Shown here piece after piece: positions 33,398-47,700 of a stretch of 64,000 bases of DNA; position 1 is the stretch's first letter, and every line of letters begins with the position of its first letter. Below the pieces are notes generated by a model, which saw nothing but the letters and a program-made list of their open reading frames with translations, ran no database searches and was not told the origin of the DNA. Source of the stretch: a candidate division FCPU426 bacterium (GTDB lineage: Bacteria; Oederibacteriota; Muellerivitia; Muellerivitales; Muellerivitaceae). The DNA is taken from positions 1,504,001 to 1,568,000 of the forward strand of contig CAWCKJ010000004.1 in the NCBI GenBank assembly GCA_963796105.1. The letters run 5' to 3'. The position numbers and the translations under genes were made by a program.

Positions 33398-34012
33398 CAC
33401 CTACCGGCATGGGGGTCTCAGCTACCGGCATGGCGGGAATCACCTACCGGCATGGGGGTCTCAGCTACCGGCATGGCGGGGATCGCCTACCGGCATGAGG
33501 TTCTCAGCTGCCGGCATGGCGGGAATCACCTACCGGCATGAGGTTCTCAGCTACCGGCATGGCGGGGATCGCCTACCGGCATGGGGGTCTCAGCTACCGG
33601 CATGGCGGGAATCACCTACCGGCATGGGGGTCTCAGCTACCGGCATGGTGGGAATCACCTACCGGCATGGGGGTCTCAGCTACCGGCATGGCGGGGATCG
33701 CCTACCGGCATGAGGTTCTCAGCTACCGGCATGGCGGGAATCACCTACCGGCATGAGGTTCTCAGCTACCGGCATGGCGGGGATTGCCTACCGGCATGGG
33801 GGTCTCAGCTACCGGCATGGCGGGAATCACCTACCGGCATGAGGTTCTCAGCTACCGGCATGGCGGGGATCGCCTACCGGCATGAGGTTCTCAACTACCG
33901 GCATGGCGGGGATCGCCTACCGGCATGGGGGTCTCAGCTACCGGCATGGCGGGGATCGCCTACCGGCATGAGGTTCTCAACTACCGGCATGGCAGGGTTC
34001 GCCTACTGGCAT
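33398..34012. repeat. Tandem array of 14 x 43-bp units plus a partial unit; CTACCGGCATG core every 21/22 bp
   Basis: Unit CRC-CTACCGGCATG-RGGKTCTCAR-CTACCGGCATG-GCGGGRAT read directly. Confidence 0.97.
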
Positions 34013-34450
34013 ATTCCTGGGCTCTTATTTGCAGGCGAGTTTTCCACCAATCCGGGGTCAAGTTTTCCGTCGTCCGGTGCCGGGTTTCCGCCATCCGGAG
34101 ACGGGCTTTCCGGCGACATGGCGGTCGGGTGGAGCGGCAGGCATGTCGGAGGCCCTGTCGGAATGGGCGGTCCGACTGCTGGCATTGACGTTGAGTCCGC
34201 CTAATTCTTTATTTCTTGCAACAATTCTTCATTTTTCATTGCCTTGCCGTGAGCTTGTCGAATCCGTCATTTTTCGTTTTTTCCCCGTTTTCTCCTAACT
34301 TTTTTGATGTTCCTCATTTTCCATTCTACATTGTTCATTTTTCATTGTTTTCCGTTGGTGGCATAATGAGGGCCGGTTTTTGGCGTATGACGTAAGATAA
34401 ACTGAAAATTAATAAAAAACTCAACTTTGGAAAATTTTTAGGCCGTTGGT

Positions 34451-34617: not shown

Positions 34618-36075
34618 ATGTTCGAACAAGCATTTAAAAACATTGATGATGTGCTTTATAAAGAAGATGGTTGCAGCACGGAACTCGATTATGCCGAGCA
34701 ATCCTCTTGGCTCCTTTTCTTAAAATACCTCGATGGGTTAGAGCAGGAACGCGCGACGGCGGCTAAGCTGGACGGCAAGAGATACAGCTATATCCTCGAT
34801 GAACCTTATCGCTGGGCGTCTTGGGCCGCGCCTAAAACTAAGGATGGAAAATTAGACCATAACAATGCCCAAACCGGCGATGATTTGCGCGACTTTGTGG
34901 ATAAAAAACTTTTCCCGTATTTTCGGGCATTTAAGAGTAAGGCGAGTGGGCCCAACACCATCGAATACAAAATCGGGGAAATCTTTAGTGAGATAAAAAA
35001 TAGGATTCAAAGCGGTTACAACATGCGCGAGATCATCGACCACATCGATGAATTGCGGTTCGGCTCACAAAAAGATAAGCACGAACTTTCCCACCTATAC
35101 GAAGCCAAGATAAAGAATATGGGAAACGCCGGGAGGAATGGCGGTCAGTATTACACTCCCCGCCCATTGATCCGGGCCATTATCCAGGTCGTTAAGCCCG
35201 AATTAGGGGAGCGCATTTACGACGGGGCGGTCGGGTCTGCGGGCTTCTTATGCGAGTCTTACAACTACCTCTTGGCCAACAATCCCAAACGATCCACGGC
35301 ACAGGATAAGACCTTGCAAGAGCGTACCTTTTATGGGAAGGAAAAGAAGTCCCTCGCCTATGTCATAGCCATCATGAACATGATTTTACATGGCATTGAA
35401 GCGCCTAATATCATCCATACCAACACGCTTTCCGAGAACCTCGCCGACATCCAGGAAAAAGACCGTTATGAGGTTGTAGTAGCCAATCCGCCCTTTGGTG
35501 GTGGGGAACGAAAGGAAGTTCAGCAAAATTTTCCCATCCGCACCGGGGAAACCGCCTTTTTGTTCCTTCAGCATTTCATCAAAATCCTAAAAGCTGGTGG
35601 ACGCGGCGGCGTAGTTATCAAAAACACTTTTCTATCCAATACCGATAATGCCTCCACCTCTCTGCGTAAACTGCTCTTGGAAAGTTGCAACCTCCATACC
35701 GTGCTCGATTGCCCCGGAGGTACGTTCCTGGGCGCGGGGGTAAAGACCGTTGTACTCTTCTTCGAGAAAGGCGTACCCACCCGGAAGATTTGGTATTACC
35801 AGCTTGATCCTGGCCGCAACATGGGCAAGACCAACTCACTTAACGACGATGACCTTTCCGAATTTGTGAAGTTGCAAAAGAAATTCGCCGATTCACCAAA
35901 GTCGTGGTCGGTGGATGCCAAGGGTATTGATAAGGAAACCTTCGATCTTTCCGTAAAGAACCCCAACGGTGGCGAGGAAGTTAAACACCGTAATCCAAAG
36001 GCGATCATGGACGAAATTGCCAAGCTCGATTCAGAAAGCGCCAAAGTGTTGGGAAACATCAGGAAGTTGGTATGA
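34618..36075 (+). CDS. hsdM: Type I R-M methyltransferase subunit (m6A)
   Basis: GQYYTPRPLI, YDGAVGSAGFL, NPPF. Confidence 0.96.
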   Translation: MFEQAFKNIDDVLYKEDGCSTELDYAEQSSWLLFLKYLDGLEQERATAAKLDGKRYSYILDEPYRWASWAAPKTKDGKLDHNNAQTGDDLRDFVDKKLFPYFRAFKSKASGPNTIEYKIGEIFSEIKNRIQSGYNMREIIDHIDELRFGSQKDKHELSHLYEAKIKNMGNAGRNGGQYYTPRPLIRAIIQVVKPELGERIYDGAVGSAGFLCESYNYLLANNPKRSTAQDKTLQERTFYGKEKKSLAYVIAIMNMILHGIEAPNIIHTNTLSENLADIQEKDRYEVVVANPPFGGGERKEVQQNFPIRTGETAFLFLQHFIKILKAGGRGGVVIKNTFLSNTDNASTSLRKLLLESCNLHTVLDCPGGTFLGAGVKTVVLFFEKGVPTRKIWYYQLDPGRNMGKTNSLNDDDLSEFVKLQKKFADSPKSWSVDAKGIDKETFDLSVKNPNGGEEVKHRNPKAIMDEIAKLDSESAKVLGNIRKLV

Positions 36076-37247
36076 AAAACGGATGGGAAATAAAAAAACT
36101 TGGCGATGTTAGTGATTTCGAAGGAGGTTCTCAACCGCCGAAATCGAAATTCATATTTGAAAAGAGACCGGGTTATGTGCGTTTTCTTCAAATTCGGGAT
36201 TTTACCAAAGATAAAAATATTACTTATATACCTGAATCGAAAAAGAATCGACTCTGCAAAGAAGATGACATACTGATTGGAAGGTATGGCGCTTCGGTTG
36301 GAAAGATTTTGACAGGTAAGGCGGGTGCTTACAACGTGGCTTTAATGAAGACCAAGCCAAATTTGGCTTTGTTTGAGAAATCTTGGTTTTATAATTATCT
36401 CGTATCAGATGAGTTTCAAGGCCGCTTGGCTAATGTTGCTGACCGTTCAGCTCAAAATGGATTTAGCAAAGAAGATATATTTAATTTTCCTGTGCCCATT
36501 CCTCCGCTTACCGTACAGAAACGGATTGTCGGCATTCTCGACGAAGCGTTTGAGGGTATCACCACTGCCAAAGCCAACGCCGAAAAGAATCTCCAAAACG
36601 CCCGCGCCATCTTTGAAAGTCATCTCCAATCCGTCTTCACCAAGCCCGGCGGGGGGTGGATGGAGAAACGTCTAGTAGAGATTGCGCAAGAATTTGGTCG
36701 TGGTAAGTCTAAGCATCGTCCGCGTAATGACCCCAAACTCTACGGCGGCAAATACCCGTTCGTCCAGACGGGAGATGTCAGCAACGCTGATCACTGGCTA
36801 ACAAACTACTCCCAGACCTATGGCGAAGTTGGTCTAGACCAAAGTCGGTTGTGGCCGAAAGGGACTATCTGCATCGCAATTGTCGGGGCAACTGTTGGCG
36901 AAACTGCAATTCTTAACTTCGAAGCATGTTTTCCAGACAGCGTAATCGGGATCATAGTTAATGAGAAGCTCGCGGATAACGAGTATGTAGAATACTTGCT
37001 TCAATCATACAAAGCACTCTTGAAAGAGAAGGGGCAGGGCACAGCGCGCGATAATATTAATCTTGGGACATTTGAAAACCAAACTTTTCCATTCCCGTCG
37101 TTGAAGTTGCAGAAAGAAATTGTGGTTACGCTTAATGCGCTACACAAAGAAACCCAACATCTTGAATCCATCTACCAGCACAAGCTCGAAGCGCTGGAAG
37201 AATTGAAAAAGTCATTGCTGAACCAAGCCTTCACCGGAGAATTATAG
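36072..37247 (+). CDS. hsdS: Type I R-M specificity subunit, two TRDs
   Basis: GWEIKKLGDV, PIPPL..QKRIV..LD, second TRD after GWMEKRL, LKKSLLNQAFTGEL. Confidence 0.95.
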   Translation: MKNGWEIKKLGDVSDFEGGSQPPKSKFIFEKRPGYVRFLQIRDFTKDKNITYIPESKKNRLCKEDDILIGRYGASVGKILTGKAGAYNVALMKTKPNLALFEKSWFYNYLVSDEFQGRLANVADRSAQNGFSKEDIFNFPVPIPPLTVQKRIVGILDEAFEGITTAKANAEKNLQNARAIFESHLQSVFTKPGGGWMEKRLVEIAQEFGRGKSKHRPRNDPKLYGGKYPFVQTGDVSNADHWLTNYSQTYGEVGLDQSRLWPKGTICIAIVGATVGETAILNFEACFPDSVIGIIVNEKLADNEYVEYLLQSYKALLKEKGQGTARDNINLGTFENQTFPFPSLKLQKEIVVTLNALHKETQHLESIYQHKLEALEELKKSLLNQAFTGEL

Positions 37248-37250
37248 ATA

Positions 37251-38447
37251 ATGCCCATTCCTGATAACAAACCACCGCAATCCAGCATTGTCCTCTACCG
37301 GACGGAGGACGGACGCACGCGCATCCAATGCCGGTTTGAAAATGAGACAATCTGGCTTACGCAAGTGCAAATCGCAGAACTGTTTCAAACTACCGTGCCT
37401 AATGTCAATCAACATATCAAGGCCATATATGACGAAGGCGAATTAGCCGAAGAGGCAACTATTAAGTCTTACTTAATAGTTCGATCCGAAGGCTCCAGGG
37501 AGGTTTCCCGCGATGTGATGCATTACAGTCTTCCTGCCATCCTCGCTGTCGGCTACCGTGTACGCAGCTCCCGAGGTACGCAGTTCCGCCAGTGGGCGAC
37601 AACGCGCTTGAACGAGTACCTGGTGAAGGGTTTCACCATGGACGATGAACGCCTGAAAAACCCCCCGGGACCAGGCTATACGGACTATTTCGACGAGTTG
37701 CTGGAGCGTATCCGGGACATCCGGGCCAGCGAGCGCCGGGTTTATTTGCGGGTCAGGGAAATACTGGCCTTGGCCGCCGACTACAAGCCCACCGGCGGGG
37801 AAACCAAGGTTTTCTACCAAACCGTCCAAAACAAGCTTCATTTCGCCGCCACAGGCAAAACCGCCTCCGAATTGATCGCGCAAAGGGCTGACGCTAAAAA
37901 GCCCAACATGGGCCTGACCTCCTGGAAAAGCGGCGTGGTGCGCAAGGGCGACGTGACAGTGGCCAAAAACTACCTGCGCGAACCCGAGATCGACGAACTG
38001 AACCGCATCGTCGTCATGTTCCTCGATTTCGCCGAGGACCAGGCCCGCCGGCGCAAACAGATATTCCTGAGGGACTGGAAAACCCGATTGGATGCTTTCC
38101 TGAAATTCAACGAGCGCGCCGTACTGCCCGGGGCCGGGAAGATCAGCCATGAAAAAGCGGAAGCGATGGCGGAAAAAGAATACGAGCTTTTCGCCGAAAG
38201 GCGCCGCGCCCAGCTTGAGGAGGAAGCCGAAACGGATACCCTTCGTCAGCTTGAGGCTGAGGTCAAGGGACGACCCTTCGGGTCGCCACTTGGGCGGGGC
38301 ATGGAACCCCGCCCAAGTACACGGCTAGGCTCTCGGGCATCTGGCTACACTAAAGCTTCGCCAGATAGGCGCCCGGAGCCTCGGCAGCCGGTGAAAAAAC
38401 TGCCCAAGCGGAAGAAACCCAGGAAGGGCAAGCCATGTACCGATTAA
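37251..38447 (+). CDS. rhuM: RhuM-family (virulence/DNA-binding) protein with a palindromic C-terminal insertion
   Basis: ETIWLTQ..IAELFQ, HI..IY.EGEL, ILAVGYRVRS.RGTQFRQWA, YLVKGF.MDDERLK, RIRDIRASE, VQNKLHFA, AKNYL. Confidence 0.92.
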   Translation: MPIPDNKPPQSSIVLYRTEDGRTRIQCRFENETIWLTQVQIAELFQTTVPNVNQHIKAIYDEGELAEEATIKSYLIVRSEGSREVSRDVMHYSLPAILAVGYRVRSSRGTQFRQWATTRLNEYLVKGFTMDDERLKNPPGPGYTDYFDELLERIRDIRASERRVYLRVREILALAADYKPTGGETKVFYQTVQNKLHFAATGKTASELIAQRADAKKPNMGLTSWKSGVVRKGDVTVAKNYLREPEIDELNRIVVMFLDFAEDQARRRKQIFLRDWKTRLDAFLKFNERAVLPGAGKISHEKAEAMAEKEYELFAERRRAQLEEEAETDTLRQLEAEVKGRPFGSPLGRGMEPRPSTRLGSRASGYTKASPDRRPEPRQPVKKLPKRKKPRKGKPCTD

Positions 38448-38739
38448 TATTTTTATTATTCTAGGGAATCGGCACTATGCTGGGCCGGTTCTCCTATGGA
38501 ACCTGCACCATCAAAACGAGTGCCTCGGCCGGAAGCCTCGGCACAGATAGACTTTTTTAATAATAATTTTAAACAGAAGGTCAGCATGTACCGATTAATA
38601 TTTTCGATAATTCATGGAAATCGGCACTATACCGGCCTCAGTATAAAAACTTCCATTAGAAGGTCAGCATGAACGAAGCCGAGACCAGGGCCGAACACAT
38701 AGACCCGGCGTTGAAAAACGCGGGGTGGGGCGTGGTGGA
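38415..38739 (+). repeat. Long direct repeat, copy 1 (rhuM 3' end, hairpin units, hsdR 5' end)
   Basis: Aligns with 42915-43322, which carries one extra 83-bp unit. Confidence 0.93.
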
Positions 38740-38743
38740 ATGA
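38669..38743 (+). pseudogene. hsdR: hsdR 5' stub 1 (24 codons)
   Basis: 71 bp identical to 43252-43322, then TGA. Confidence 0.9.
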
Positions 38744-38769
38744 AGAGCCGATAAAGAGGGTTGGAATTG

Positions 38770-38990
38770 AACCGTCGACAGTTTGTCGACAGTCCAATAG
38801 GGCATACATCTTTGAAGATAAAGAATTGCGCCGGAAAGCAACTGTTCGGAAATTCCGAATAGTTTGAAATGAAGGCGGACGAGAGGCAGTTATCCGGAAA
38901 TCCCGGATAGCTCGTTTTGTGGGTGTGCGCGGTGGCGAATGAGTAGAGCCGGCAACTTGTAAGGATTAATTACAAGTTCGAAAGGGGCGT
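38770..38990 (+). pseudogene. Four concatenated RhuM-like fragments, each centred on a 25-bp palindrome
   Basis: Translations TVDSLSTVQ*G, IFEDKELRRKATVRKFRIV*NEGGRE, EAVIRKSRIAR, GE*VEPATCKD*LQVRKG versus RhuM IYDEGELAEEATIKSYLIVRSEGSRE. Confidence 0.75.
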
Positions 38991-38992
38991 TT

Positions 38993-39829
38993 ATGAAGCA
39001 ACTGTTAGCCAAATTTGAAGGCCATGCCATCCGCCGAGTTTATGACGAGGATACTGAAACCTGGTGGTTCTCCGTGGTAGATATTATGCGGGTGCTGACC
39101 CAACAACCGGATTACCAGACCGCCCGCAAATACTGGAACAAGCTAAAAGAGCGGCTGGTTAAAGAAGGCAGTGAGTCGGTGACAAATTGTCACCAACTGA
39201 AACTTCCCGCCTCCGACGGCAAAAGTTACCTCACCGATGTCGCCACCGCCAAGACGCTATTGCGCCTGGTGCAGTCTGTGCCCAGTCCCAAGGCGGAACC
39301 GATCAAGTTGTGGCTGGCCAAGGTGGGCCACGAGCGCCTGAAAGATATGGCGGACCCAGCTCTTTCCCTGGATCGCGCCCGCGAGTATTGGAAACAGCAG
39401 GGCCGAAGTGAGAAGTGGGTCCAACAGCGCATGATGGGCCAGGAAACCCGGAACAAACTGACGGATTACTGGAAAGGCCACGAGATCAAGGGAGATGACG
39501 AATACGCCCTGTTGACCGACCTGATCCACCGGGAATGGGCGGATGTTTCGGTGAAACAGCACAAACAAATGAAGGGGCTCAAGACCCAAAATCTTCGCGA
39601 CCACATGACGGAGGCGGAATTGATCTTTACGGCTTTGGCCGAGCTTTCCACCCGGCAAATGGCCGAGAGTGTTGAAGCCACCGGGTTGAATGAGAATAAA
39701 ACAGCGGCCAAAAAGGGCGGCCATATCGCCAAAAACGCGCGGCTTGACCTGGAAAGCAAGACCGGGAAAAGGGTCATTACCGGCGATAATTATCTGCCGC
39801 CGCAACGCCGCATCACTGGAAAGAAATAA
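38993..39829 (+). CDS. BRO-N/antirepressor-like DNA-binding protein
   Basis: FE...IRRVYD...WWFSVVD, ARKYWNKLK.RL, DGK.Y.TDVA, QSVPSPKAEP.K.WLA, NLRDHMT. Confidence 0.85.
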   Translation: MKQLLAKFEGHAIRRVYDEDTETWWFSVVDIMRVLTQQPDYQTARKYWNKLKERLVKEGSESVTNCHQLKLPASDGKSYLTDVATAKTLLRLVQSVPSPKAEPIKLWLAKVGHERLKDMADPALSLDRAREYWKQQGRSEKWVQQRMMGQETRNKLTDYWKGHEIKGDDEYALLTDLIHREWADVSVKQHKQMKGLKTQNLRDHMTEAELIFTALAELSTRQMAESVEATGLNENKTAAKKGGHIAKNARLDLESKTGKRVITGDNYLPPQRRITGKK

Positions 39830-41518: not shown

Positions 41519-41632
41519 ATGTACGAAGCTGAAACCAGAGCCGAACACATAGACCCGGCGTTGAAAAATACCGGGTGGGGCGTTGTGGACGGCAGCCGCG
41601 TACTGCGGGAATACCAAATGACCGCAGGATAG
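41519..41632 (+). pseudogene. hsdR: hsdR 5' stub 2 (37 codons), divergent allele
   Basis: MYEAETRAEHIDPALKNTGWGVVDGSRVLREYQMTAG* versus the HsdR N-terminus. Confidence 0.9.
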
Positions 41633-42914: not shown

Positions 42915-43322
42915 AAACCCAAGAAGGGCAAGCCATGTACCGATTAATATTTTTAACAATTCATGGGAATCGGCACTATGCCGGGCCGGTTCCCCTATGG
43001 AACCGGCACCATCAAAACGAGTGCCTCGGCCGGAAGCCTCGGCACAGATAGACTTCCTTATAAAAATTTCCAATAGAAGGTCAGCATGTACCGATTAATA
43101 TTTTCGATAATTCAAGGAAATCGGCACTATACCGGCCTCAGTATAAAAACTTCCATTAGAAGGTCAGCATGTACCGATTAATATTTTCGATAATTCAAGG
43201 AAATCGGCACTATACCGGCCTCAGTATAAAAACTTCCATTAGAAGGTCAGCATGAACGAAGCCGAGACCAGGGCCGAACACATAGACCCGGCGTTGAAAA
43301 ACGCGGGGTGGGGCGTGGTGGA
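42915..43322 (+). repeat. Long direct repeat, copy 2, with an 83-bp tandem duplication (43086-43168, 43169-43251)
   Basis: Direct alignment to 38415-38739. Confidence 0.93.
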
Positions 43323-45606
43323 CGGCAGCCGCATTTTGCGGGAATACCAAATTACTCCCGGGCGCATCGAGGGGGTGGGGAGACCCAATAAGCCTTCGAT
43401 TGCCGATTATGTGTTGGTCTATCGAAACAACAAGATGGCCGTGGTGGAAGCCAAGGCTTGGGATGAGGAATTAACCGAAGGGGTTGGCCAGGCCAAGGCC
43501 TACGCGGACAAAATGGCTGTTCGGTTCGCCTATTCCACCAACGGCCAGGGCGTTTACCAGATCGACATGCAGACCGGCAAAGAGGGCAAGTTATCTGCTT
43601 TTCCAACGCCCGATCAGCTTTGGGCCGCGACTTTTTCCGAAGCGAACGCCTGGCGGGACCGTTTCTCCGAAGTGCCTTATGAGGACAAAAGCGGCAGTCA
43701 TCCATCGCGCTTTTACCAGGACATCGCCATTGACCGGGTGATGGAGGCTATCGCGGCAAAGAAAAACCGCATCCTGCTTACCCTGGCCACGGGAACGGGA
43801 AAGACCTTTATCGCATTCCAGATCGCCTGGAAACTTTTCCATAGCCGATGGAACCTGAGCGGCCAACCCACCCGCCGTCCCCGAATTCTTTTCCTCGCCG
43901 ACCGCAACAACCTGGCCGACCAGGCCTATAACGCTTTTTCCGCGTTTGCCGAGGACGCATTGGTTCGCATCAAGCCGGACGAGATCCGGAAAAAGGATCG
44001 GGTGCCGACTAACGGGAGCATCTTCTTCACGATTTTCCAAACTTTTATGAGCGGCCCGCCCAAGGAGGGGAAGCCGCCTGTCCCTCAAAGCCCAGCGGGC
44101 GTAGTGGGATCGCCCTATTTCGGCGATTACCCGAAAGATTTCTTCGATTTTATCGTGATTGACGAGTGCCATCGCGGAGGGGCGAACGATGAAAGCAATT
44201 GGCGCGGCATCATGGAATATTTTTCCCCGGCCGTGCAGTTGGGCCTCACGGCTACACCCAAGCGCCAGGAGAACGCGGATACCTACGCCTATTTCGGCGA
44301 ACCGGTTTATATCTATTCCCTGAAGGAAGGCATCAACGATGGGTTCCTCACACCCTTCAAGGTGCGGCAGATATCCACGACATTGGATGAATATGTCTAT
44401 ACCCAGGACGATAACGTTGTTGAGGGTGAAATCGAGGCGGGCAAAAGGTACACCGAGCCCGACTTCAACCGGATCATCGAAATCAAGGAACGCGAAGCCT
44501 ACCGGGTGAAACTGTTCATGGACCAGATCAACCAGAACGAGAAAACCCTGGTCTTTTGCGCCACGCAAGCCCACGCTTTGGCGGTTAGGGACCTGGTCAA
44601 TCAGATGAAGACCAGCACAGATCCCAACTATTGCCAAAGGGTCACGGCCGATGAGGGGGAACTTGGAAACCAGTACTTGCGGGATTTCCAGGACAACGAA
44701 AAGACCATCCCGACCATTTTGACCACTTCCCAGAAGCTCTCCACCGGGGTGGATGCCCGCAACGTGCGCAATATCGTGCTGATGAGGCCGATCAATTCCA
44801 TGATCGAGTTCAAGCAGATCATCGGCCGGGGGACCCGCCTTTATGACGGCAAGTATTACTTCACGGTTTACGACTTCGTGAAGGCCCACCACCACTTTAA
44901 CGACCCGGAATGGGACGGGGAACCACTGGAGCCGGAACCGAAAGAGCCGAAATACAAGGATGATCATCATCACCCGGGGGCGAGTGAAAAAAAGGCTGAA
45001 CATGATAGACCGCAAAGAGTCAAAATAAAACTCGCCGATGGGAAAGCCCGTACCATCCAATCAATGATGGTCACGAGTTTCTGGCATCCCGACGGGACTC
45101 CCATGAGCGCCCAACAATTCATGGAATTGCTATTCGGGAAATTACCAGGATTTTTCAAGAACGAGGCAGAGCTTCGCGCGATTTGGAGCGCGCCGGACAC
45201 GCGCCAGGGATTATTAGAAGGTCTTTCCGAGAAAGGTTTCGGGAAGGATCAACTTACCGAGATGCAAAAGATCATTGACGCGGAAAAGAGCGACTTATTT
45301 GATGTATTGGCTCACGTAGCTTATGCTTTGGCGCCCTTGACCCGCGAGGAACGAGCCCAAAAGGCAAAACCCCAGATCAGCGCCCAATTCAACGCCCACC
45401 AGCAGGCTTTCCTTGATTTCGTGCTCGACCATTATGTAAATGATGGGGTGGAAGAGTTGGAAACCTCGAAGCTGACGCCTCTTCTTCGCCTCAAGTACCA
45501 CAATGCTCTTCAAGACGCCTTGGCTGACCTAGGCCCAGCCGAAACAATCAATAAAATGTTCTTCGGCTTCCAGAAGTACCTTTACCAACCTGTAACATCG
45601 AACTGA
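43252..45606 (+). CDS. hsdR: Type I R-M restriction subunit (EcoAI/EcoEI-like)
   Basis: ADY...VVEAK nuclease motif, LATGTGKT, DECH, GLTATP, QIIGRGTR, EcoEI-type C-terminus. Confidence 0.96.
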   Translation: MNEAETRAEHIDPALKNAGWGVVDGSRILREYQITPGRIEGVGRPNKPSIADYVLVYRNNKMAVVEAKAWDEELTEGVGQAKAYADKMAVRFAYSTNGQGVYQIDMQTGKEGKLSAFPTPDQLWAATFSEANAWRDRFSEVPYEDKSGSHPSRFYQDIAIDRVMEAIAAKKNRILLTLATGTGKTFIAFQIAWKLFHSRWNLSGQPTRRPRILFLADRNNLADQAYNAFSAFAEDALVRIKPDEIRKKDRVPTNGSIFFTIFQTFMSGPPKEGKPPVPQSPAGVVGSPYFGDYPKDFFDFIVIDECHRGGANDESNWRGIMEYFSPAVQLGLTATPKRQENADTYAYFGEPVYIYSLKEGINDGFLTPFKVRQISTTLDEYVYTQDDNVVEGEIEAGKRYTEPDFNRIIEIKEREAYRVKLFMDQINQNEKTLVFCATQAHALAVRDLVNQMKTSTDPNYCQRVTADEGELGNQYLRDFQDNEKTIPTILTTSQKLSTGVDARNVRNIVLMRPINSMIEFKQIIGRGTRLYDGKYYFTVYDFVKAHHHFNDPEWDGEPLEPEPKEPKYKDDHHHPGASEKKAEHDRPQRVKIKLADGKARTIQSMMVTSFWHPDGTPMSAQQFMELLFGKLPGFFKNEAELRAIWSAPDTRQGLLEGLSEKGFGKDQLTEMQKIIDAEKSDLFDVLAHVAYALAPLTREERAQKAKPQISAQFNAHQQAFLDFVLDHYVNDGVEELETSKLTPLLRLKYHNALQDALADLGPAETINKMFFGFQKYLYQPVTSN

Positions 45607-46653: not shown

Positions 46654-47259
46654 ATGGCTACCCCGTTCCAATACCGGAAAATCACCCAAGCGATAAATTT
46701 TTTCGCTGAAAAAGAAAATAATAAAACCATCAACGTCACAAAAGTCGTAAAACTCCTCTGGGCCGCCGATCGATATCACTTACGTAAATACGGAAGATTA
46801 TTAACTTGCGATAATTACGTCGCGATGGAAAGGGGCCCGGTGGGTTCAACGGTTAAAGACATCGCGGAAGAAAGCAATTTTTTACCCGCCGGCATTGATT
46901 CATATTCGACCAAATACCTGAAGCCTAGGCAATATGTGACCCAGTCATGCCGTGAAGCCGATATGAAAGTGTTTTCACAAACTGATATTGAAGCTTTGGA
47001 ATTTGCCAATACTAATTTTGGCTCCATGTCCCAAAGCGAATTAACGCATTTATCACATCAATATCCGGAATGGAAAAGATTCGAGGGGAAATTAAAGTCC
47101 AAAGCTAGTTTGAAAGAAGATATCGACTTCCTTGATTTCTTTCTCGATCCAAACCCTGAAAACGTCCCGGACGATAAATTCAAAATGGATGACGAGCTTT
47201 TAGCTTTAAGCAAGGATATTTTCTCTGAAGAGACTGAAATTACGGGTTTGCTTTCTTGA
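46654..47259 (+). CDS. Panacea/DUF4065 (SocA-like) antitoxin-domain protein
   Basis: KVVKLLWAADRYHLRKYGR.L..D.Y.AM..GPV, L..LSH.YPEW. Confidence 0.85.
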   Translation: MATPFQYRKITQAINFFAEKENNKTINVTKVVKLLWAADRYHLRKYGRLLTCDNYVAMERGPVGSTVKDIAEESNFLPAGIDSYSTKYLKPRQYVTQSCREADMKVFSQTDIEALEFANTNFGSMSQSELTHLSHQYPEWKRFEGKLKSKASLKEDIDFLDFFLDPNPENVPDDKFKMDDELLALSKDIFSEETEITGLLS

Positions 47260-47265
47260 AAAATC

Positions 47266-47700
47266 ATGACACTTACACCGGAAGAATTAAATGATTATAT
47301 TTTTCCAGGTTCCGTACTTCGCTTAAGCAATTCCAATACCTTTTCCGTAGAACCCCATTACCATATCATCCTGAATAAAAATCCGCTAACTGATCCGGAC
47401 ATAGTCATGGTTATTGCTTCGACCAACATCGAGGGAAGATTGCGGCATGCGCAAAAAACAGGCAAGGCTCCATCGACATTGTTGATTTTTGAAAATAAAG
47501 ATTGTTCTTTTTTAAGCGAGGAATCTATTTTTGATTGTAATTCGCCCTCCGCCATTTCCTTGAGCGCCCTTTATGACAAATATAATTGTGGGGAATGGAC
47601 AATTAAGAATAAATTTTCAGTGTCACCTGAGATATTGGAGAAATTTAGAAATGCGGTTCGGCTTAGCGCTGCTGCGGCCTATTTTAAGGAATTGCTTTAA
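47266..47700 (+). CDS. Hypothetical protein, possibly PemK/MazF-like toxin
   Basis: PGSVL...PHYHIILN...VMVIAST...FL.E.S..DC; directly after the Panacea gene. Confidence 0.5.
   Translation: MTLTPEELNDYIFPGSVLRLSNSNTFSVEPHYHIILNKNPLTDPDIVMVIASTNIEGRLRHAQKTGKAPSTLLIFENKDCSFLSEESIFDCNSPSAISLSALYDKYNCGEWTIKNKFSVSPEILEKFRNAVRLSAAAAYFKELL

Follow-up and report, generated by a model that had tools for sequence, protein, structure and literature searches.

A predicted DNA self-recognition code in rhuM-type genes and an array of palindromes of the same geometry in a type I restriction operon

RhuM has so far been a 'virulence' label without a molecular function. According to the available parts of the sources, induction of a member of the PADLOC candidate family PDC-S05 in E. 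coli reduces the plating of T7 and T5 about 1000-fold (bioRxiv 10.1101/2024.09.26.614923), RhuM genes are enriched beside invertible loci with an odds ratio of 14.4 (PMC9881135) and one rhuM promoter site is bound by LexA (PMC3998124). Those parts of the accounts of RhuM and PDC-S05 mention neither a palindrome nor DNA specificity (bioRxiv 10.1101/2024.09.26.614923; PMC9881135). A literature search whose reach stopped short of most subscription papers and all supplements found no account of a palindrome in rhuM, Bro or ORF6N genes or of a helix–site code.

The locus described here lies in a 64,000-nucleotide stretch of DNA from a candidate division FCPU426 bacterium (the window). It carries a rhuM gene with a 25-bp palindrome in its coding sequence and, further downstream, an array of four palindromes with the same 11-3-11 geometry in front of a bro gene (Table 1). 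This raises the question of what such a palindrome does inside a gene and how four others came to lie beside it. An earlier note on this DNA had taken the four for silent RhuM helix variants, and had offered three explanations: donor cassettes for gene conversion, operator or decoy sites bound by the RhuM variants that they encode, and scars of repeated allele replacement at a hairpin hotspot. We regard it as moderately probable that rhuM contains a predicted self-operator and that the array consists of foreign sites left over from gene replacement.

Table 1. Features of the locus, in window coordinates
Feature	Position	Strand	Details
hsdM	34618–36075		upstream of hsdS
hsdS of host type I restriction operon	36072–37247	+	
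rhuM	37251–38447	+	PF13310; PADLOC candidate PDC-S05; N-terminal winged-helix domain predicted
rhuM codons 47–54 (TTVPNVNQ)	37389–37412	+	N-terminal end of predicted recognition helix; residues covarying with palindrome
rhuM in-gene palindrome	37457–37481		11/11 pairs; core ATTAAG; predicted self-operator; encodes wing strand
hsdR leader copy	38415–38674	+	93% identical to 42915–43174; 38575–38739 is 99.4% identical to 43158–43322
hsdR stub 1	38669–38743	+	24 codons, then stop
Array unit 1	38770–38794 (palindrome)		core GTCGAC; extended to 38766–38798, pairs 13/15
Array unit 2, rhuM fragment	38806–38886	+	palindrome 38840–38864; cores GTTCGG/ATTCGG; TGA 38865–38867
Array unit 3, rhuM-like fragment	38882–38930	+	palindrome 38888–38912; core ATCCGG; shared GAGG joins unit 2
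Array unit 4, rhuM fragment	38934–38984	+	palindrome 38954–38978; core TGTAAG; in-frame TAA
bro	38993–39829	+	PF02498 Bro-N; PADLOC candidate PDC-S13
bro in-gene palindrome, 11-3-11	39174–39198		10/11 pairs; core GGTGAC; predicted self-operator
hsdR, intact	43252–45606	+	

The palindrome in rhuM and the predicted recognition helix

The RhuM of the window scores 373.7 bits with the PF13310 profile (curated cut-off 33.7 bits) and matches the PDC-S05 profile with an E value of 1e-161. Its palindrome is perfect, as the earlier note had stated, and the same codons carry a palindrome in all 80 rhuM loci compared (the best 80 of 430 confirmed); mean pairing in these homologues is 10.2 at the palindrome and 6.5 at the next-best of 930 positions. 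The suspicion that homologues would prove variable here, yet self-complementary, was borne out: the 80 loci contain 46 different 25-mers, with compensatory changes at every variable pair. In a wider set, in which 232 profile hits in 294 loci gave 228 complete and finally 197 distinct N-terminal domains (the window gene included), the palindrome is present in 194 of the 197. Mismatch types are about even (five G:T, three A:C), and in 18 genes with GC3 above 0.8 the third-position GC inside the palindrome is 0.31. Since host codon bias is ignored and G:U is not preferred, the constraint lies on the DNA. An RNA hairpin was rejected, as an excess of G:U over A:C is absent and no Rfam match was found at E values up to 1.

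The predicted structure of RhuM (pLDDT 81, pTM 0.53; pLDDT 83–93 for residues 31–100) suggests that the N-terminal domain is a winged helix, a DNA-binding fold. In the model, the recognition helix is the long helix of residues 49–61, whereas codons 69–77, in which the palindrome lies, encode the end of a four-residue helix and the wing strand; to call the array units helix variants is therefore wrong on the predicted structure. The solved fold closest to residues 35–107 is the DNA-binding domain of pSK1 Par (PDB 8csh; rmsd 2.3, 53 aligned residues, 13% identity), with a moderate Z of 7.7, below 8 and in the range that the fold-comparison tool calls common. Other fold matches include ParA2, RacA and Xis, the sole Foldseek match with E <0.001 is DdrC (TM 0.24), and the PDB holds no sequence match for RhuM. 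A catalytic C-terminal domain was considered and rejected: it gave no PDB sequence match, only generic helical matches, atlas scores of 0.76 and no lead to a nuclease or recombinase.

The same palindrome and wing types turn up on branches that are far apart, with 37 changes against a minimum of 17 and, for the type-B wing, six changes in six genes. Another wing type (AADGK), found together with AGTT..AACT ends, occurs on six separate branches (L002, L005, L010, L030, L048 and L078). The wing may read the outer bases of the palindrome.

The inner bases follow the helix. In the 194 domains that have a palindrome (the three without it were dropped), bases 5–10 share normalised mutual information of 0.44–0.82 with residues 47–51, 53 and 54, compared with 0.01 at the buried residues 52 and 55 and at most 0.17 at residues 56–68, which are closer to the palindrome. 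Bases 8–10 track residues 51 and 54. Individual residues go with particular bases: N, S and T at residue 53 with AT (65/67), GT (49/54) and TG (35/36), E at residue 54 with CGG (54/55), T and N at residue 51 with CG (60/64) and AA (81/89), and, among genes of the TIR type, R or K at residue 50 with base 7 being C. The adjacent codons 53 and 54 vary independently, each with its own part of the site, in a 3 × 4 grid. Changes at two of the base pairs are silent in both arms: in 53 TIR-type genes, pair 7/19 is C with R/K50 (28/28) and T with other residues (25/25), and pair 10/16 is A with H/Y54 (12/12) and G with others (136/136) in 148 genes of two amino-acid backgrounds. At 38 other silent positions the value is at most 0.13, against 0.90 for pair 7/19.

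Changes were traced on a FastTree phylogeny from which helix and site had been removed, giving 13 joint helix–site changes for pair 7/19 and nine for pair 10/16. Independent pairs were distributed 6:0 for the former (p 0.03) and 5:0 for the latter (p 0.06, five pairs being too few to reach significance); three further tests of this kind had a median p of 0.016–0.03, and that of N at residue 53 was not significant (p 0.07). In the stretch between helix and site, codon identity is no higher in same-core pairs (0.40–0.45 vs 0.41–0.45). Once relatives of ≥80% identity had been excluded and 35 domains whose arms are unequal set aside, the six-base core was predicted correctly from the helix in 138 of 159 domains and from the rest of the domain in 68, and by a simple rule helix and site agree in 146 of the 159 genes. 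Among 14 fresh plasmid and phage records, which were chosen after the rule, one arm was predicted by the helix in 11 and by the rest of the domain in four; three of these records are close to training members, and the remaining 11 gave eight and one, respectively.

Bro and ORF6N genes have the same arrangement. All 80 Bro relatives carry an in-gene palindrome, base 8 of which follows the helix, and RKYWNK goes with GGTGAC in 66 of 68 distinct stretches, while all seven GTTAC sites go with YWKV or YWRV. A palindrome of the same geometry is found in each of 30 ORF6N loci, with EQ matched by CG (8/8), KA by TC (5/5) and Q[ATG] by CA (12/13); these Bro and ORF6N figures are counts that ignore kinship. 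At the outer bases 2–4 of Bro the arms covary and the helix is not tracked. Bro and ORF6N proteins thus likely each bind a predicted site in their own gene as well. Profile comparison of RhuM and Bro gave a homology probability of 0.14%, though helix and wing fell in register. Some ORF6N genes (L319, L321 and L323, of the ORF6N loci L307–L336) have extra in-frame palindromes spaced 27, 36 or 54 bp, orphan sites lie upstream at L320, L323, L330 and L334, and genome G000 has seven ORF6N matches.

Such patterns might also arise without DNA binding, if hairpin-templated repair kept the arms symmetric and the helix covaried through packing against the wing and through linkage. Residue 54 and residues 72 and 75 show charge complementarity (E54 with R72/R75, K54 with E75), possibly pairs at the protein level; helix and site are just 60 nt apart; the outer bases of Bro covary without a helix partner; and because paired silent sites evolve slowly, an old linkage could last longer there than at ordinary silent sites. 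We nevertheless consider this account very unlikely. Independently of one another, codons 53 and 54 each follow their own part of the site, the other silent sites stay far below pair 7/19, and orphan sites decay, hence symmetry is not automatic. Finally, each of the two silent base pairs goes with a single residue in every gene concerned, 53 and 148 respectively, which, as far as sequences can tell, argues against linkage or protein packing. It is highly probable that RhuM binds the predicted site inside its own gene. The operator idea of the earlier note therefore survives in part: the site does track a segment of RhuM, but this is the recognition helix encoded about 60 nt upstream and not the peptide that the palindrome encodes, and the sites of the array mismatch the resident RhuM. 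We propose that the winged-helix domain would bind the 25-bp palindrome as a dimer and repress its own gene by a roadblock about 200 bp into it, which would let a cargo gene carry its own control into foreign operons.

The cargo of the restriction operon and the array

The operon, with its cargo genes between hsdS and hsdR, reads hsdM–hsdS–[rhuM]–[hsdR stub, array, bro]–[DDE transposase]–[hsdR stub, AAA+DUF4143]–hsdR, and the three cargo genes match the PADLOC defence candidates PDC-S05, PDC-S13 and PDC-S01. The hsdR leader and start are copied ahead of each cargo unit (38415–38743, 41519–41632 and 42915–43322), and the leader contains an 83-bp tandem repeat. Owing to the 99.4% identity of the duplicate before the array, the bro unit would have arrived recently; the decayed array probably came in together with it. 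In sequencing run X1, one contig joins hsdS to the hsdR start without cargo. The DDE transposase (PF13701; 39945–41375) is inserted 3' of bro, and near-identical copies of it occur at higher depth in runs X1–X3. The 3' end of rhuM (38250–38447, the last 60 codons) resembles a repeat at about ten other genome sites and holds a hairpin (38289–38317); this insert is absent from the rhuM of genome G026. A tandem repeat region with long repetitive ORFs lies upstream of hsdM (33495–34204), and directly 3' of hsdR (46654–47700) are a SocA/Panacea antitoxin-like gene and a 144-aa neighbour without assignment. No tyrosine integrase was detected among the 14 ORFs scanned at 28.0–47.7 kb of the window, three of which have no family. 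Outside the locus, the 4.98 Mb genome contains one doubtful match to a RhuM- or Bro-type site and no clear one.

The four palindromes of the array lie where the earlier note had placed them, with 9, 10, 9 and 9 of 11 pairs in units 1–4 and unit spacings of 70, 48 and 66. Four such hairpins in 243 bp were reached in none of 5000 dinucleotide shuffles, the maximum being two. Units 2–4 do share one frame with stops, as had been described: a TGA follows unit 2 directly, another precedes unit 4 and a TAA lies inside unit 4. The RhuM-like flanks that had been claimed for all four are present in units 2, 3 and 4 (E 3.5e-13, 2.8e-4 and 2.9e-5, respectively) and missing in unit 1, which has no match to the RhuM nucleotide profile (80 homologues, the window excluded). 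The flanks of unit 1 stay at background level against RhuM (p 0.07–0.61), and its core is found in none of 194 RhuM domains; its inner part equals the Bro core GACA-N3-TGTC. Look-alikes stand beside Bro-type sites at one other locus (L337) and between rhuM and hsdR in genome G026, and a search for the source gene gave three viral and five other-genome matches, none of which lies within a gene that is clearly Bro or RhuM. Judged by sequence, unit 1 is probably Bro-like or of a third family, and by its flanks not RhuM. It is no assembly artefact, since a contig of run X3 spans 38595–38842 with one difference. Another contig of that run, of 367 nt, shares 37 of 40 nt with unit 4 and extends on both sides as rhuM-like coding sequence.

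By the residue–base table, unit 2 would be the site for the VPTVNEH type, unit 3 for KDVRTINEH and unit 4 for TPQNITLH. The resident type, TTVPNVNQH, goes with ATTAAG, a core that none of the four units has, and the array was thus rejected as an operator of the resident RhuM. Unit 3 scores as terminator-like, with four such sites in 800 bp against 1.2 in shuffles.

Could the units be a silent donor library, copied into rhuM by gene conversion so as to change the wing segment? Partial homology does flank units 2–4 on both sides, and the recurrence of wing and palindrome types on distant branches implies that segments move between rhuM genes over long times. However, these units begin no earlier than about codon 58, beyond the helix codons 47–54, which they do not contain, so that a swap of the site alone would uncouple it from the helix with which it agrees in most genes. 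Unit 4 has an in-frame stop, a stop comes right after unit 2, unit 1 is not RhuM, and arrays also precede bro genes, as at L120, where six orphans lie before bro and rhuM is absent from the 3–4 kb examined. The donor-cassette reading is most improbable. In three sequencing runs (5–7% of words, contigs only), rhuM was represented by one low-depth contig with the same allele as the window.

Orphan sites at other loci and the origin of the array

Fragment arrays recur beside rhuM and bro genes, a point that the earlier note had proposed to check. Upstream of these genes, 39 orphans were found in 28 of 263 loci, against two expected by chance from Markov copies (39 against 13 in a looser initial scan); they include three before rhuM at L047, and L337 also has an array. 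Unit spacings in other arrays are 37, 38, 48, 83, 95, 73, 32, 41 and 50, and array joints reuse microhomologies of 3–5 nt (GAGG or GGC of the flanks), which yields spacings such as 48 and 38. Fully cognate orphans number none of 15 before rhuM (one half-cognate, 14 not at all) and three of 13 before bro; as operators of the next rhuM, upstream orphans were rejected on this count. Orphans have 1.05 mismatches on average, compared with 0.32 for in-gene sites. Thirteen of the 39 are perfect, four related bro leaders (L106, L112–L114) have kept 43 of 44 pairs, with compensatory changes, and 28 lie in leader position, which points to selection or repair in some. Co-resident RhuMs are no more different than chance predicts (two of 31 pairs alike, 2.2 expected), and on this count, at low power, selection for differing specificities inside one genome was rejected.

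The distance from the upstream orphan to the in-gene site is exactly 248 bp at three rhuM and three bro loci (L016, L066, L077, L106, L112 and L113), although their start codons differ; it may reflect chance, shared descent or looping. At L384 (Wolbachia phage WO gp8; 680 and ~1080), the in-gene site has decayed to 6/11 pairs, and 215 bp upstream of the start there is a site that has the predicted core and is near-perfect; from its sequence, this operator may have moved out of the gene.

How sites come to be left behind is indicated by remnants. In 323 sequences that had been masked, the site lies within 13 of the 14 short rhuM remnants (10 of 11 once two units of the window and a reverse-strand double are set aside); the same search recovered 97% of control pieces, which were 60 nt long, mutated and drawn from all parts of the gene. 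Half of 16 gene starts break off within 17 nt after the site (two being near-duplicates, at the mask edge), and translation confirmed the break at L073, L210, L227 and L279. Truncated genes are found at L004, L073, L210 and L279; at L004, bro is cut about 12 nt after its own site and rhuM stands behind it. Such a series, in which intact genes, 5' halves and bare sites follow one another, is consistent with repeated replacement next to a site to which protein is bound. Newer cargo genes would replace older ones beside the site, and the old sites would stay behind: units 2–4 from other rhuM alleles and unit 1 from one Bro-like gene. The site might survive as a protein-covered footprint that halts resection or marks break points. 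Of the explanations first offered, the neutral one, which invokes hotspot scars, accounts best for how the array arose, given the truncated genes, the remnants over the site and the non-cognate, decaying orphans. In all likelihood, the array is a scar in origin.

With the same self-operator code, the array might instead be selected, as a panel of sites in the bro leader for foreign RhuM and Bro variants that acts as a titrating decoy or as a sensor through which incoming elements switch bro and hsdR. The cores of units 2–4 are the three most frequent in the family (34, 25 and 17 of 159), 28 of the 39 orphans occupy a leader position 200–600 bp upstream of an in-gene site, some non-coding orphans are perfect and show compensatory changes, L384 has its cognate orphan upstream of a gene with a decayed site, and RhuM is found on phages (53 records) and plasmids (130), all of which would suit such a panel. 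Random capture, however, would also yield common cores, and the leader position is equally expected from insertion just after the predecessor's site (L004, L210). Moreover, none of the four units is free of mismatches, decay in orphans is three times that of in-gene sites, and the genome, 96.8% complete, contains one RhuM domain and no second. We rate a selected panel as rather unlikely and lean towards a scar that at present has no selected job.

Significance and comparison with known systems

The array has led to a predicted code, open to experiment, by which RhuM, Bro and ORF6N domains would recognise sites in their own genes. Through the covariation, the DNA target of every family member can be predicted from its own gene, the base-by-residue table lends itself to a test by one binding experiment, and the family offers at least 20 natural winged-helix specificities from which orthogonal repressors could be built. 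The covariation also suggests how defence-type cargo genes control themselves after landing in foreign operons, and would explain the orphan palindromes that litter restriction loci; arrays, if selected, would be a new kind of decoy or sensor. In its widest form, the RhuM, Bro and ORF6N winged helices would be widespread self-addressed switches with a modular protein–DNA code, and the arrays a selected record of foreign addresses, in which captured sites trap or sense variants on incoming phages and plasmids, as a protein-read memory in the restriction operon; this we think unlikely.

Several known systems resemble parts of this arrangement. REP/BIME repeats pair a protein with a short palindrome near its gene, and the variants of the two co-evolve. 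Both REP/BIME and Ssn/NTS repeats come in many dispersed copies, whereas the sites described here are confined to the locus but for the one doubtful match. In the available part of its description, Ssn/NTS consists of a GIY-YIG single-strand nuclease and many dispersed repeats flanking its gene, and, like RhuM, it combines a cognate protein with a short palindrome near the gene and co-evolving variants (PMC11893778). RhuM differs from the system as described there in that its site is inside the gene, at one genome locus, and a nuclease domain was not detected (PMC11893778). For an integron attC array, a fixed crossover at the palindrome would be expected; the spacings here and elsewhere vary. 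The silent cassettes of Neisseria pilS and Borrelia vls comprise several promoterless partial copies near an intact gene. Units 2–4 are likewise partial copies with homology on both sides, in short flanks, which unit 1 is not; unlike pilS and vls, the array copies lack specificity residues, contain stops and have 5–36 nt of flank. The winged-helix domains of pSK1 Par, RacA, Xis and DdrC share their fold with the predicted structure of RhuM residues 35–107, and to our knowledge bind sites outside their own coding sequences. A nearer parallel in the place of the site is Roi of phage HK022, a DNA-binding protein that, reportedly in work by Clerget and Boccard in 1996, binds a site within its own gene, as is predicted for RhuM. 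Roi is one protein with one site, whereas RhuM would represent a family-wide code together with arrays of foreign sites.
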